From: an uncultured delta proteobacterium
GTDB taxonomy: Bacteria; Desulfobacterota; Binatia; UBA9968
Assembly: GCA_963760795.1 (NCBI GenBank)
Contig: CAVXEP010000004.1
Span: 32,001-96,000, forward strand
Direction of reading: 5' to 3'
DNA length: 64,000 nucleotides
Shown here: positions 5,077-54,515 of the stretch, in pieces
How positions within the stretch are numbered: the stretch's first letter is position 1
How the letters are laid out: each line of letters opens with the position of its first letter
Position numbers and translations under genes: made by a program
Notes under the pieces: model-generated
Databases searched by the model: none
What the model saw: the letters and a program-made list of their open reading frames with translations, nothing else
Told to the model about the DNA's origin: nothing

Positions 5077-5159
5077 TTCACCACGAAGGCACGAAGGACA
5101 CGAAGGTTTCGGAGGTATATTATTCCGAACTTCGTGATCTTCGTGTCCTTCGTGGTGAA
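5077..5159. repeat. CACGAAG-family palindrome (uninterrupted copy)
   Basis: ttcaccacgaaggcacgaaggacacgaag ... cttcgtgatcttcgtgtccttcgtggtgaa. Confidence 0.9.
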
Positions 5160-5204: not shown

Positions 5205-6251
5205 ATGCAAGTTCTATACTTCATCCTCTTGGCTCTGTTACTTCTTCCATCCAGCGCCTGGGCGCAGGCGCGCAAGCCGTCGACCATCGCGGAACTGGTG
5301 ACCTACCGCGGCGCCGACCGCGAACAACTGCTTTACGCCGGCGCCAAGGCCGAAGGCAAAATCGTCTGGTACACTTCCCTCGCCGGCGATTCATACAAGG
5401 AATTGGTCAAGGCCTTTGAAACCAAATATGCCGGCGTCAAAGTCGATTCCTACCGCGCTCAGGGCGCGGACTTGGTGGTGCGCTTGGAAGAGGAAGGCAA
5501 AGCGCGGCGCAACATCGCCGACACCATCGAGACCACCGAGGGCAGCCTGATCTTCTTGCGCGACGGCAAACTGCTCCGCCCCTACGACTCGCCGCAGCTC
5601 GACCGCTATCCGGAAGACGGCAAGGAACGCGCCGATAAGAATCTCGTCTATTGGGCGCTCGCGCGCGAATCGTACATCGGCTTCACCTACAACAAGACGC
5701 TCGTGACAAAGGACGCGGTGCCAAAAAATTTCGACGGGCTGTTCCACCCGCAGCTCAAGGGCAAGTTGGGCATCAGCATCGGCCAGACCAGCGACAAGGT
5801 CATCGGCGCCATGATCAAAACCAAAGGCGAGGAGTTTGTCCGCAAACTCAAAGCCCAGGAGATGAAACTCTACTCCATCGACGCCCCCGCCCTGGTCAAT
5901 ACCATTACCACCGGCGAAATCGCCGGATCGCCGGCGATCTTTCAAACTCATACGCTGAGCGCCGCGTCGAAAGGCGCGCCGGTGGAATGGGTGCCCATGG
6001 ATCTGGTCCCGACCAACGTCGGCAGCGCCGCCATCGCCTTCAATCCGCCCCATCCGCACGGGGCGTTACTGATGGCTGACTTTCTTTTGAGCCCGGACGG
6101 TCAAGGCGTCTTGGAAAAACACTTTTACGGTAGCGGCGCCAAAGATCACGGTTTCAAGAAATGGCGTCCCGAGCATGGCCTGACGACGGATCAGTATGAA
6201 AAGGAGCTGCTCCGCTGGGACAAGCTGCTGCATTCGATTACGCGGAAATAA
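5205..6251 (+). CDS. ABC substrate-binding protein, paralog of 848..1891
   Basis: AGGAG RBS, signal peptide, ELVTYRGADREQLLYAGAKAEGKIVWYTSL. Confidence 0.88.
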   Translation: MQVLYFILLALLLLPSSAWAQARKPSTIAELVTYRGADREQLLYAGAKAEGKIVWYTSLAGDSYKELVKAFETKYAGVKVDSYRAQGADLVVRLEEEGKARRNIADTIETTEGSLIFLRDGKLLRPYDSPQLDRYPEDGKERADKNLVYWALARESYIGFTYNKTLVTKDAVPKNFDGLFHPQLKGKLGISIGQTSDKVIGAMIKTKGEEFVRKLKAQEMKLYSIDAPALVNTITTGEIAGSPAIFQTHTLSAASKGAPVEWVPMDLVPTNVGSAAIAFNPPHPHGALLMADFLLSPDGQGVLEKHFYGSGAKDHGFKKWRPEHGLTTDQYEKELLRWDKLLHSITRK

Positions 6252-6259
6252 AGAAACTG

Positions 6260-6558
6260 TTCACCACGAAGGAAACGAAGATCACGAAGCTCGGATTGTT
6301 AATTTTCCCAACCCTTCGTGTCCTTCGTGGCTCCTTCGAAAATACAGGTGAGCGGATGATATCCACAACGAAGAGCCTCCGGAGTTTCCGTCATACCCGC
6401 GAAGGCGGGTATCCAGGCTACATTCGGCGCAGGATACAATACCTGGATTCCCGCGTGCGCGGGAATGACGAATCGAGGAGGGAAGCATGTTCCGGGAATG
6501 CGAACCATTTTCATGCTCTGTAGGCGAGCGCAAGCTTATGGACACTTCGTGGTGAGAT
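6260..6558. repeat. CACGAAG palindrome interrupted by a mini-element
   Basis: Left arm 6260-6289; right arm split into 6314-6330 and 6545-6555. Confidence 0.85.
6331..6546. mobile_element. Putative non-autonomous CT-core (IS110-like) mini-element, copy 1, with nested CGTC-type REP (6389-6470)
   Basis: CT-ccttcgaaaatacagg...ttttcat...atggaca-CT; first ~57 nt differ by one base from copy at 54307; same insertion point in host repeat. Confidence 0.65.
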
Positions 6559-6586
6559 CTGAAATATTCAATTCTTAGGAGGTACA

Positions 6587-7672
6587 ATGAACAACCTGCG
6601 CATCATCGACGCCGACGGCCATGTCCAGGAACGCGATGCCAACTGGCAGGAGCTACTCGATCCGCCTTATCGCAAACATGCGCCGAGCATGGTGCAGTGC
6701 GCCGATGGCCGGACGCATTTATTGCTCGAAGGTAAGATCTGGGCCAAGCCGAGCGGCAAGGGCTGCGGCATCGGCACCGCGCCGATCACGCGCAAACCGC
6801 GCACAACCACCGGCATGTGGGATCCGCTGCAGCGCCTTAAAGACATGGACATGGAAGGCATCGACACTGCGGTCAACTTCGGCACGACGGTGTTTTTAAG
6901 TCTGCCGTTTCTCGAAGATCATGACTTCGCCTGCGCCATCGCCCATGGCTATAACACCTGGCTTGCTGAGTATTCCAAGACCAATCCGAAGCGCTTGAAG
7001 GGCGTTGCGCTGGTGGCCCAGCAGGAGCCGCTGGAGGCCGCCAAGGAACTCGAACGGTGCGTTAAGCAACTGGGCTTTGTCGCCGTCGCCGTTGCCGGCC
7101 ACTCCGCCGGCCGCAACCTCGATCATCCCGACCTCTATCCGTTCTACGCCAAAGCCGAGGAGCTCGGTGTGCCGGTCTGCGTTCATGTCGGTTCGGGCCG
7201 GCCGGCGGCGGCTGCCGAGCGCTTTGACAATCCCTATTTCGTGCATGCGACCACCCACGCCTTCGAGCAAATGATCGGCGTCATGTGCATCGTCGGCGGC
7301 GGCATTCTCGAACGCTATCCAAAGCTCAAAGTCGCGTTCCTCGAAGCCGGCGCCGGCTGGGTGCCCTACTGGATGGAGCGCTTGGACGAGCATTATGAAT
7401 ATATGTCGCCGGCGGTGCCGCTGATGAAAAAACCGCCCAGCGAATACATGAAGAGCGAGCAGGTTTATTATTCCTTCGAGCCGGACGAACAGACTTTGAA
7501 TTTCGTCATGGACTACATCGGCGACGACCGCCTGGTGTTCGCCTCGGACTACAATCACGGCGACAGCAAGTTTCCCCACACAGTGGCATCCGTGACCGGG
7601 CGGAAAAATATAACCGAGAGCCAGCTGAAAAAATTGATGTGCGACAATGCGGCGCGATTGTATAACATCTAA
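6587..7672 (+). CDS. Amidohydrolase family protein (Amidohydro_2)
   Basis: IIDADGH, CVH, FLEAGAGW, FASDYNH motifs. Confidence 0.9.
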   Translation: MNNLRIIDADGHVQERDANWQELLDPPYRKHAPSMVQCADGRTHLLLEGKIWAKPSGKGCGIGTAPITRKPRTTTGMWDPLQRLKDMDMEGIDTAVNFGTTVFLSLPFLEDHDFACAIAHGYNTWLAEYSKTNPKRLKGVALVAQQEPLEAAKELERCVKQLGFVAVAVAGHSAGRNLDHPDLYPFYAKAEELGVPVCVHVGSGRPAAAAERFDNPYFVHATTHAFEQMIGVMCIVGGGILERYPKLKVAFLEAGAGWVPYWMERLDEHYEYMSPAVPLMKKPPSEYMKSEQVYYSFEPDEQTLNFVMDYIGDDRLVFASDYNHGDSKFPHTVASVTGRKNITESQLKKLMCDNAARLYNI

Positions 7673-12276: not shown

Positions 12277-12357
12277 TCACCACGAAGGACACGAAGAGCA
12301 CGAAGTTCGGATTGCCAATCCTCCGAAACCTTCGTGTCCTTCGTGCCTTCGTGGTGA
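12277..12357. repeat. CACGAAG-family palindrome (uninterrupted, empty target site)
   Basis: tcaccacgaaggacacgaagagcacgaag ... cttcgtgtccttcgtgcCTtcgtggtga. Confidence 0.9.
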
Positions 12358-54237: not shown

Positions 54238-54515
54238 TCAGCACGAAGGCACGAAGAGCACGAAGTACGAAACCATTTTTGTCCGAAACCTTCGTGCCCT
54301 TCGTGCCTCCTTCGAAAATACAGGTGAGGGGATGATATCCACAACGAAGAGCCTCCGGAGTTTCGTCATACCCGCGAAAGCGGTATCCAGGCTAATTGGG
54401 CACAGACCAAACCTGGCTTCCCGCGTGCGCGGGAATGACGAGTCGAGGAGGGAGTTCCCTCGATTTTCATTCTCCGTGGGCGTGCGTGAGATCATGATTA
54501 ACTTCGTGGTGAGAT
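54238..54515. repeat. CACGAAG palindrome interrupted by a mini-element
   Basis: cacgaaggcacgaagagcacgaag ... cttcgtgcccttcgtgc | insert | cttcgtggtgaga. Confidence 0.85.
54307..54503. mobile_element. Putative non-autonomous CT-core (IS110-like) mini-element, copy 2, with nested CGTC REP (54364-54440)
   Basis: CT-ccttcgaaaatacagg...ttttcat...atgattaa-CT; homologous to 6331-6546. Confidence 0.65.

Follow-up and report, generated by a model that had tools for sequence, protein, structure and literature searches.

The window analysed here is a stretch of 64,000 nucleotides from the genome of an uncultured bacterium (G000:C4:32001-96000; the G000 assembly comprises 6.58 Mb in 35 contigs and is 89% complete). 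Two of its intergenic regions, one flanked by genes for a solute-binding protein and an amidohydrolase, the other by a Rieske-domain ORF on one side and the end of a gene for an MFS transporter on the other, contain a palindromic repeat whose right arm is split by an insert, here named mini-element copy A and copy B, respectively (Table 1). The palindrome comprises three CACGAAG heptads at intervals of 9 nt, separated by a loop from three CTTCGTG heptads and the GTGA that comes after them. The CACGAAG motif is found 29 times in the window versus 10.35 +/- 3.09 expected (100 shuffles, none of which reached 29). The insertion point lies in the right arm between CTTCGTG heptads 2 and 3, with a CT bounding the insert on both sides, while the empty arm at 12339-12357 reads CTTCGTGC-CT-TCGTGGTGA.

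Table 1. Coordinates of the palindromes and of the two mini-element copies in the window.
Feature	Position	Strand	Remarks
Empty host palindrome	5078..5158	.	Intact target site, both strands
Host palindrome, left part	6260..6330	+	Three CACGAAG-type heptads, loop, right-arm CTTCGTG heptads 1-2
Mini-element copy A, 214 nt	6331..6544	+	Orthologous site empty in G013
Short-end-derived end of copy A, CTCCTTCGAAAAT	6331..6343	+	From the short (right) end of the parent
Nested REPIN-like inverted REP pair, copy A	6389..6470	.	CGTCAT-hairpin-ATCCAGG
Long-end-derived end, copy A	6500..6544	-	LE positions 1-46; nhmmer LE profile and pairwise alignment
Heptad 3 and palindrome terminus, CT-TCGTGGTGA	6545..6555	+	Side matched by the guide-like CCACGAAG of the parent
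Empty host palindrome	12277..12357	.	Intact target site, both strands
Host palindrome, left part, second filled site	54238..54306	+	
Mini-element copy B, 195 nt	54307..54501	+	Left module as in copy A, different right-module variant
Nested REPIN-like pair, copy B	54364..54440	.	CGTCAT-hairpin-ATCCAGG REPs, inverted
LE-derived end, copy B	54457..54501	-	LE profile match
Third heptad at copy B, CT-TCGTGGTGA	54502..54512	+	

Both copies start with CT-CCTTCGAAAATACAGGTGAG, end in ...ATGGACA or ...ATGATTAA and are followed by CT-TCGTGGTGA. They align over their full length (E 2.8e-52) and their first 57 nt differ at a single position (C/G at position 23). No terminal inverted repeats were found in copies A and B, the two ends being unrelated to each other, and CT is the only sequence shared between the target and both junctions, with no longer duplication. 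The initial annotation of the window had described inserts of about 200 nt splitting the palindrome arm at the same CT, one base apart over their first 57 nt or so, devoid of terminal inverted repeats and of any credible ORF, and each carrying a nested CGTC-type REP; all these features were recovered.

Searching the whole assembly, we counted 19 mini-element copies of 160-240 nt in G000, 18 as paired end modules detected by nhmmer and one divergent copy (C9:88518-88678). A fuzzy search with the first 22 nt returned 19 matches, 17 of which had the palindrome terminus 161-241 nt downstream, one lacked it and one was spurious; the profiles of the end modules gave 19 left and 24 right matches, forming 18 pairs at distances of 75-118 nt. 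As this profile search revealed no pair at a greater distance, G000 is devoid of a long copy. CT is present at the start of 17 of the 19 copies and directly after 18 of them, and all 19 are immediately followed by an 11-mer similar to CTTCGTGGTGA (at most 2 mismatches). CACGAAG-type heptads are found within 90 nt leftward of 16 copies, and the left palindrome arm is missing at C5:39443, C16:94756 and C27:11629. The comparison of filled and empty sites suggested in the initial annotation could thus be made: the 19 filled sites stand against 130 exact empty targets in G000 (CTTCGTG, 0-3 nt, CTTCGTGGTGA; both strands), and a strict parse identified 111 paired palindromes. The best within-genome match of each copy ranges from 56 to 96.6% identity, the upper value being that of the closest pair; no two mini-elements of G000 are identical, so that nothing points to very recent activity.

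Four orthologous comparisons between species provided precise presence/absence pairs. At the locus of copy A, G013 possesses an intact empty palindrome between the same two genes, and G022 and G003 carry different hairpin repeats. The reverse case was encountered at three loci, filled in G019 (L006), G022 (L007) and G023 (L011) and empty in G000. The clearest pair opposes CACCACGA-AG-GACACGAAG on contig C32 of G000 to CACCACGA-AG-element-AG-GACACGAA in G022. The filled allele is the empty allele plus the element and one CT dinucleotide. For copy B, no orthologue of the upstream flank was found in the five congeners searched. Among public runs available as assembled contigs (24 runs, the best containing 0.33 of the sampled words), the contigs of the four runs examined break at the repeats and present neither a back-joint nor a skip of 6331-6544.

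These pairs bear on the possibility that palindrome and insert are a single composite repeat, the insert-bearing form being a long variant of the palindrome that spreads as a unit or by gene conversion, and the short form resulting from a deletion between CTTCG repeats. The occurrence of the same CTTCGTGGTGA-like 11-mer after every copy of G000 is in line with such an origin, as are the first bases of the mini-element, CTCCTTCG, which resemble a heptad. However, the orthologous palindrome pre-exists in an empty state from which the filled one differs by exactly the element and CT, the same element is present at the matching point of a second family of palindromes (CTCTGTG type), and a recombinase-bearing IS with the same ends occupies the same point. 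In addition, two to three of the G000 copies lack the remainder of the palindrome. We consider this explanation very improbable. An insert invariably found with the same flanks, named at the outset as the case that would speak against insertion, is contradicted by the orthologous empty sites and by the palindromes of the CTCTGTG type.

The recombinase-bearing element was identified in related genomes as a 1.5-kb IS110-family element encoding a 421-amino-acid DEDD recombinase and located at the same point of the same palindrome. Out of 30 IS110 loci from the genus scanned for the mini-element, three (L019, L020 and L036) carry its right end (37-40 nt, 89-92%) beside CTTCGTG. At L019/L046 of G008, the flank ...CTTCGTGctCTTCGTGtc is followed by CTCCTTCGAAAAT..., the oppositely oriented 421-aa ORF, a non-coding stretch of about 245 nt, ...CCATTTTCATCTTCTGTGGACGAGCGTAAGCTCATGACACA and the flank CTTCGTGGTGA, the element being inserted between CTTCGTGtc and CTTCGTGGTGA. 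The plus strand of copy A corresponds to the strand antisense to this recombinase gene. The encoded protein (P0001) matches the Pfam domains DEDD_Tnp_IS110 (PF01548, 1.3e-32) and Transposase_20 (PF02371, 2.7e-18) as well as the NCBIfam model NF033542 "IS110 family RNA-guided transposase" (289.5 bits for a cut-off of 140). Its best solved relative is IS621 (PDB 8wt6, E 4.5e-11), and its plasmid-borne relatives share up to about 50% identity with it. The element has a left end (LE) of about 245 nt and a right end (RE) of about 30 nt; this combination of a long left end and a short right end, together with a two-module predicted fold, is a trait of the IS110 group. With both recombinase domains present in the related genomes, the parent belongs to the IS110 family, IS110 group. 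The mini-element, which has no recombinase, is thus a derivative of the family and not a member in its own right.

At its short end, the mini-element is identical to this parent over 13 out of 13 nt (compared with the RE plus core of the full-length IS in reverse complement), and about 36-49 nt of the long end are shared as well. Pairwise alignment detected no similarity between its interior and the sampled parent, and some bases adjoining the shared blocks resemble a 51%-identical cousin rather than the main lineage, both observations indicating that the exact parent lineage has not been sampled. No cognate recombinase was found in the whole G000 assembly. Its one IS110-family gene (C32, L001) was rejected as a helper on account of its different ends, the lack of a CACGAAG heptad, its association with another REP type and the absence of tblastn similarity to P0001 at E<=10. 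Longer copies bearing a recombinase between the same ends, expected from the initial annotation, therefore exist in related genomes (L019/L046) and are missing from the present assembly, which contains no circle junction or guide RNA either.

Between their ends, the mini-elements are mosaics of a left module with three variants, a middle part made of an inverted pair of CGTCAT-hairpin-ATCCAGG REPs with two variants, occasionally tripled, and a right module with two to three variants. One copy of G003 lacks the nested REPIN-like pair. REP heads number about 163 genome-wide in G000, and none was found beside its Y1_Tnp genes. This common architecture argues against in-situ decay, according to which each mini-element would be the remnant of a full-length IS that lost its interior and never moved as such. 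It is true that the ends are those of an IS110 element and that truncated or disrupted full-length copies exist (L061, L062). Yet the mini-elements have interior modules in common that are absent from the IS (the three left-module variants, the REPIN at the same place, the right-module variants) and must thus descend from mini-element ancestors. Furthermore, copies about 90% identical to copy A are found at non-orthologous sites in G019 and G022. Very little credit can, in our opinion, be given to such a decay.

We also considered a single-strand miniature of the IS200/IS605 type (Y1 HUH) or a REP/RAYT-type element, which would insert 3' of a short target and carry sub-terminal hairpins. The lack of inverted repeats and of duplication, the hairpin potential near both ends and three Y1_Tnp matches in G000 are compatible with it. 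The Y1_Tnp loci, however, have neither element ends nor REPs within 1.5 kb, apart from a lone CACGAAG heptad in L003, the sole gene found between the same ends is the IS110 recombinase, and the end modules have no consensus hairpin (RNAalifold returned no structure). As an IS110 parent was found and the Y1_Tnp loci share no ends with the element, an IS200/IS605 (PATE) or RAYT origin was rejected as extremely improbable.

The coding capacity of the mini-element is limited to stop-free frames of 45-73 codons whose strand and frame vary among the 17 copies examined, none of which revealed a conserved ORF, and the lengths of the copies cover all three classes modulo 3. On the minus strand of copy A a 101-codon frame runs across the element; a small protein starting at the ATG of ...CATGAGC... 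on this strand was rejected because the frames are not conserved among copies. Rfam gave no match in the window at the gathering threshold and none at E<=1 on L046, L059 and L005, and a known RNA family was accordingly discarded. Apparent compensatory hairpins of the mini-element lie in different registers and were thus not counted as covariation. A structured non-coding RNA gene or a small-protein gene merely favouring intergenic positions, which the 101-codon frame and the hairpin-forming left-module variants could evoke, is hardly credible given the non-conserved frames, the empty Rfam searches and the lack of a consensus structure in the end modules.

To describe the ends and leader of the parent, the main IS lineage was read in 12 copies from 8 genomes (76-100% amino acid identity, one copy from the unpublished G004). 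In the orientation of the recombinase, the left flank ends with CCACGAAG in 10 of the 12 copies, and the IS starts with TG(A/T)(T/G)(T)TCATGA and ends with ATTTTC(G/T/A)AAGG-AG. On the right flank, read in 10 copies, a CACGAAG heptad follows after 0-2 nt in six and a CACAGAG or CGCAGAG heptad in two (L050, L052); in L048 the flank is another left end, and in L055 it consists of unrelated DNA. The leader of about 245 nt is predicted to fold into an outer stem enclosing two modules, each made of a stem, an internal loop and a hairpin. Among the 50 predicted consensus pairs of this model, 8 have compensatory changes, a modest covariation support that results from the low diversity of the leader sequences.

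The 3' side of module 1 carries (C/A)CACGAAG-UGUGA, corresponding to the flank, the core and the first bases of the element, and that of module 2 carries CGAAGGAG, corresponding to the right end and the core. Read on the strand of the CT core, the module 1 string is the reverse complement of CT-TCGTGG preceded by the element-terminal CA, and the module 2 string that of CT-CCTTCG. According to the available text on IS621, the 3'-side guide of each loop pairs with the core and the right half, and is followed by a 2-nt handshake guide (PMC11208160). These matches suggest for the module 1 string the role of a long right-target guide with handshake, and for the module 2 string that of a right-donor guide. 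L052, inserted in a CACAGAG/CGCAGAG palindrome, has CACAGAG as its leader string. The cousins L056 and L060 (51% amino acid identity) sit at CGCGCAAAG / (A/G)CGCAAA (the slash marking the insertion point), possess the leader strings GGGCAAAG-UA and CAUAAGAG, and have TTTTCATAAG-AG as their own end. The putative guides thus covary with what they would recognize in three lineages, CACGAAG, CACAGAG and GCAAAG tracking the flank and CGAAGGAG and CAUAAGAG tracking the end of the element.

A left-half guide is clear only in the cousins, where the 5' side of module 1 reads UUUGCGUCU, 9/9 identical to the left half plus CT of the L060 site. No left-target or left-donor guide could be identified in the main lineage, for which the candidates UAAGUGA-CU and CUUCGGCGCCU match partly. 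A loose left context of insertion would fit several arrangements: a complete mini-element directly after the end of another one (L087), an IS directly adjoined by a second left end (L048), and the copies on contigs C5 and C27 of G000, correct on their right side and foreign on their left. L048 and L087 are head-to-tail chromosomal junctions and not circles. Palindromes of the CTCTGTG type also harbour mini-elements (L086, L090 and L104), inserted after heptad 2 and before heptad 3 and bounded by CT at each junction, as in L104, which reads ...CTCTGTGc/CT-CCTTCG...CATGAACA/CT-CTGTGGTGA, the slashes marking the limits of the insert.

The internal ACGAAG and TCGAGGAG of the mini-element had been put forward as possible guide segments, a proposal that did not stand. 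Both are absent from other sub-types of the element: one left-module type has no ACGAAG, and the position of TCGAGGAG varies among copies (TCTAAGGA, TCAAGCAG). The guide-like strings are located in the leader of the parent, in a part that the mini-element does not have. Consistently, the leader profile run on G000 matched leader positions 1 to about 45 alone, always within mini-elements.

Parent and mini-element differ in their distribution. The recombinase was detected in 9 of the 90 genomes of the family at E <= 1e-40 and in 8 of them at 76% amino acid identity or more. Of the 30 other genomes of the genus, 3 contained it, namely G008, G024 (where it is cut by a contig end) and the unpublished G004; it was not found in five mini-element-bearing genomes reached through their mini-element loci. 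Full-length mini-elements (query position 1 to at least 200) were listed for nine genomes of the genus (G000, G003, G008, G013, G017, G019, G021, G022 and G023); the 35 out of 41 genomes counted in a broader tally owe their matches mostly to the nested REP on its own and should not be taken as bearing the mini-element. Of five IS-bearing genomes from outside the genus, G055 alone has a full-length mini-element, in one copy. An exact 20-mer scan over one genome per prokaryotic species produced 27 matches in 26 stretches. All but one of these matches belong to five MAGs labelled delta proteobacterium, Thermodesulfobacteriota or Syntrophobacter, and the remaining one was attributed to chance, as the Bacillota MAG that contains it shows none of the other features of the element. 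An order-wide search for further IS lineages added two relatives at 39-40% whose ends could not be defined.

Taken together, our results make it very likely that the insert is a miniature, non-autonomous derivative of an IS110-group IS, mobilised at a CT core by a full-length relative acting in trans. The mini-element would have retained only the two ends at which recombination takes place (long left end, about 45 nt; short right end, about 13 nt), and would have lost the DEDD recombinase gene as well as both guide loops of the bridge RNA, thus depending on a full-length relative for both enzyme and guide. The leader of this relative would be transcribed as a bridge RNA and, in complex with the recombinase, would act in trans on the mini-element, one guide loop (CGAAGGAG, equal to the right end plus core) recognizing its ends and the other (CCACGAAG, the complement of CT-TCGTGG) recognizing the terminal heptad of the palindrome. 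Recombination at the CT core would then place the element between heptads 2 and 3 and add one CT, probably through a circular intermediate in which the joined ends would read ...CATGNNNCA-CT-CCTTCGAAAAT.... We infer the trans-mobilisation itself, as well as its time and the IS copy that would have been responsible, from these comparisons of sequences.

The initial annotation had already read the insert as a non-autonomous, repeat-targeting element mobilised in trans, a reading that gains support from the CT core, the REP-like palindrome used as target, the empty orthologues, and the absence of a recombinase and of guide loops. The proposed dependence is mechanistically plausible, as a 22-bp donor of IS621 was sufficient with a bridge RNA provided in trans in the laboratory, according to the available text (PMC11208160). 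Several observations go against this reading, among them the unrelated interior of the mini-element, the modest covariation in the leader, the main-lineage left guides that could not be identified and the three G000 copies without a left palindrome arm. In addition, no cognate full-length IS is assembled in G000, at a completeness of 89%, and the helper is absent where mini-elements are most numerous. The latter holds for the well-assembled, mini-element-rich congeners G003 (10 contigs) and G013 (30 contigs), which, together with the lack of identical copies in G000, points to past or sporadic mobilisation. ISs are frequently absent from assemblies.

A broader scenario can be sketched as a tentative proposal that we hold to be possible and somewhat doubtful. 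The mini-elements would be hyper-parasites of RNA-guided recombinases, a single cargo family that two or more IS110 lineages have mobilised in trans after natural re-programming of their bridge RNAs to different heptad palindromes (CACGAAG, CACAGAG); the choice of site would rely almost entirely on the extended right-target guide of 7-8 nt, leaving the left context free, with a core mirrored relative to IS621; and palindromes, guides and mini-elements would co-evolve, the REPINs being nested in them as a fourth layer.

Efforts are under way to engineer bridge recombinases into tools for programmable DNA insertion. In this respect, the family would offer gene-less and guide-less cargos, dozens per genome, that retain end sequences of about 13 nt on one side and about 45 nt on the other, together with natural cases of guide re-programming following the target repeat. 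It also suggests that an extended right-target guide may be enough when the left side is permissive. The three-heptad palindromes would in turn be landing pads shaping the intergenic regions of little-studied soil bacteria.

Compared with IS621 of Escherichia coli as described in the available text (PMC11208160, PMC11208158), the parent has a similar DEDD recombinase with a Transposase_20 domain, a long left end with two stem/internal-loop/hairpin modules (predicted here) and guide strings in which the core is included. The CT core and the REP-like targets are likewise common to both, as is a handshake-like extension of 2 nt, with UG facing the element-terminal CA. The parent differs by a distantly related protein (8wt6, E 4.5e-11), by a right-target guide of 7-8 nt instead of the 4 nt given there for IS621, and by the left guide halves, not identified in its main lineage. 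In addition, the strand that carries the CT core is antisense to the recombinase gene, and the polarity of this core may be the mirror image of that of IS621 if the left donor of IS621 is on the RE side, a convention that we deduced from the available text.

ISPpu10 and ISPa11 (PMC11208160; 10.64898/2026.03.19.712850) are likewise described as inserting into repeated extragenic palindromes with specificity of orientation and position. They are autonomous, unlike the mini-element, and the palindrome reported here differs from their described targets in having three 7-nt repeats per arm. The accessible part of a recent preprint (bioRxiv 10.64898/2026.08.14.744561) reports tandem non-coding units beside IS110 recombinases, to be compared with L048 and L087, and small elements implying a trans-acting bridge RNA; dispersed mini-elements lacking both recombinase and guides are not described in that part. 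Our search of the main-text literature on IS110, bridge RNA and non-autonomous elements found no other description of dispersed IS110-derived mini-elements.

The closest precedent is the MITEPpu9/ISPpu9 pair of Pseudomonas putida KT2440, for which we refer to the available text of its description (PMC12288879). MITEPpu9 has no recombinase and consists of an sRNA gene, ssr9, with a near-copy of an ISPpu9 end on either side. The formation of minicircles is described for it, and it is registered as a MITE-like element. ISPpu9 inserts into REP sequences, and MITEPpu9 occurs both beside the IS and alone (8 copies in one strain, 5 of which are attached to the IS), with use of the IS recombinase in trans proposed by the authors. 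The tandem arrangement of an IS followed by a mini-end is common to MITEPpu9/ISPpu9 and to L048. In contrast with MITEPpu9, the mini-element has 19 copies, no assembled parent, no recognisable RNA gene and a nested REPIN. It is distributed across a genus of uncultured MAGs labelled Thermodesulfobacteriota. Having neither inverted repeats nor a target-site duplication, it is not a strict MITE, and "MITE-like" is the accurate term for a small, multi-copy element without ORF that carries the ends of a known IS. The mini-element functions in the manner of an IS110 donor and, having no recombinase, is not itself a member of IS110. The family would be a natural counterpart of the 22-bp donor of IS621 used with a guide RNA in trans, as presented in the available text (PMC11208160).

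Three sequence families of three-heptad palindromes, CACGAAG, CACAGAG/CGCAGAG and CGCAAAG, were recognized at loci L052 (genome G064), L050 (G057), L056/L060/L057 (G055 and G008) and L090/L104. Each family serves as a landing site for an IS110 lineage, and a matching string is present in the leader of that lineage. The palindromes themselves turn over at orthologous sites, as seen when the intergenic spacer hosting mini-element copy A (window 6331-6544) was compared across four genomes. The CACGAAG palindrome occurs in the source genome G000 (window 6250-6590) and in G013 (L066); the spacer of G022 (L064) also holds a heptad-type palindrome, worded differently with GGAGTA/TACTCC words, and that of G003 (L065) a simple GC hairpin. 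At the edge of copy A, a sigma-70-like match (window 6539-6568, plus strand) is formed by its final six bases, TGGACA, and by AATATT 18 nt downstream; this is a consensus match only, directed toward the amidohydrolase gene with its ATG at 6587.

The interiors of the mini-elements vary. Copies A and B of the window each enclose an inverted REP pair, a type whose heads number about 163 in G000. One copy in G003 (L070, G003:C6:452110-452254) is devoid of it, and in one G023 copy (L071, contig C30) the REP pair is itself split by further hairpin repeats, with a nesting depth of up to four layers. A 161-nt mini-element of G000 (C9:88518-88678) is typical in its ends and insertion point and differs in its interior, which contains an 11-bp stem (GGATGTGGTGA/TCACCACATCC) and no REP pair.

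The sole assembled IS110-family gene in G000, a 408-aa ORF (L001, C32:23160-26630), bears no relation to the ends of the mini-element and is surrounded by a repeat of a different type (ccctctccc...gggagagg). The studied repeat families are absent within 1.5 kb of the three Y1_Tnp matches of this genome, save one lone CACGAAG heptad (L003).

REP pairs nested in the mini-elements of the window and Y1_Tnp matches in G000
Feature	Location
REP pair, inverted, within copy A	window 6389-6470
REP pair, inverted, within copy B	window 54364-54440
Y1_Tnp (IS200/RAYT-type) match 1	G000:C9:1600-1926
Y1_Tnp (IS200/RAYT-type) match 2	G000:C25:48409-48738
Y1_Tnp (IS200/RAYT-type) match 3	G000:C25:43983-44156

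Two mini-elements are joined head-to-tail in L087 (CAWJZV010000018.1), reading ...CATGAAGCA-CT-CCTTCGAAAAT..., and in L048 (G058:C779) a second left end is fused via the core to the right end of an IS. Lying in the chromosome, such junctions resemble those of a donor (circle) and would mislead any search of reads for circles.

Some full-length IS copies are damaged (L061 in G062:C17, L062/L063 in G055:C26 and L049 in G062:C3): one contains repeat DNA and is truncated after residue ~259 or so, another is broken into two frames, the second piece with a stop (TAA), and a third carries an in-frame TAG. In all full-length copies, the recombinase-coding strand reads the shared dinucleotide as AG, CT lying on the antisense strand. 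In the cousin lineage L056/L060 the guide geometry agrees with this assignment: relative to the CT strand, the 5' string is identical and the 3' string complementary. The core polarity of the full-length copies would be the mirror of that of IS621, whose convention we infer from text passages.
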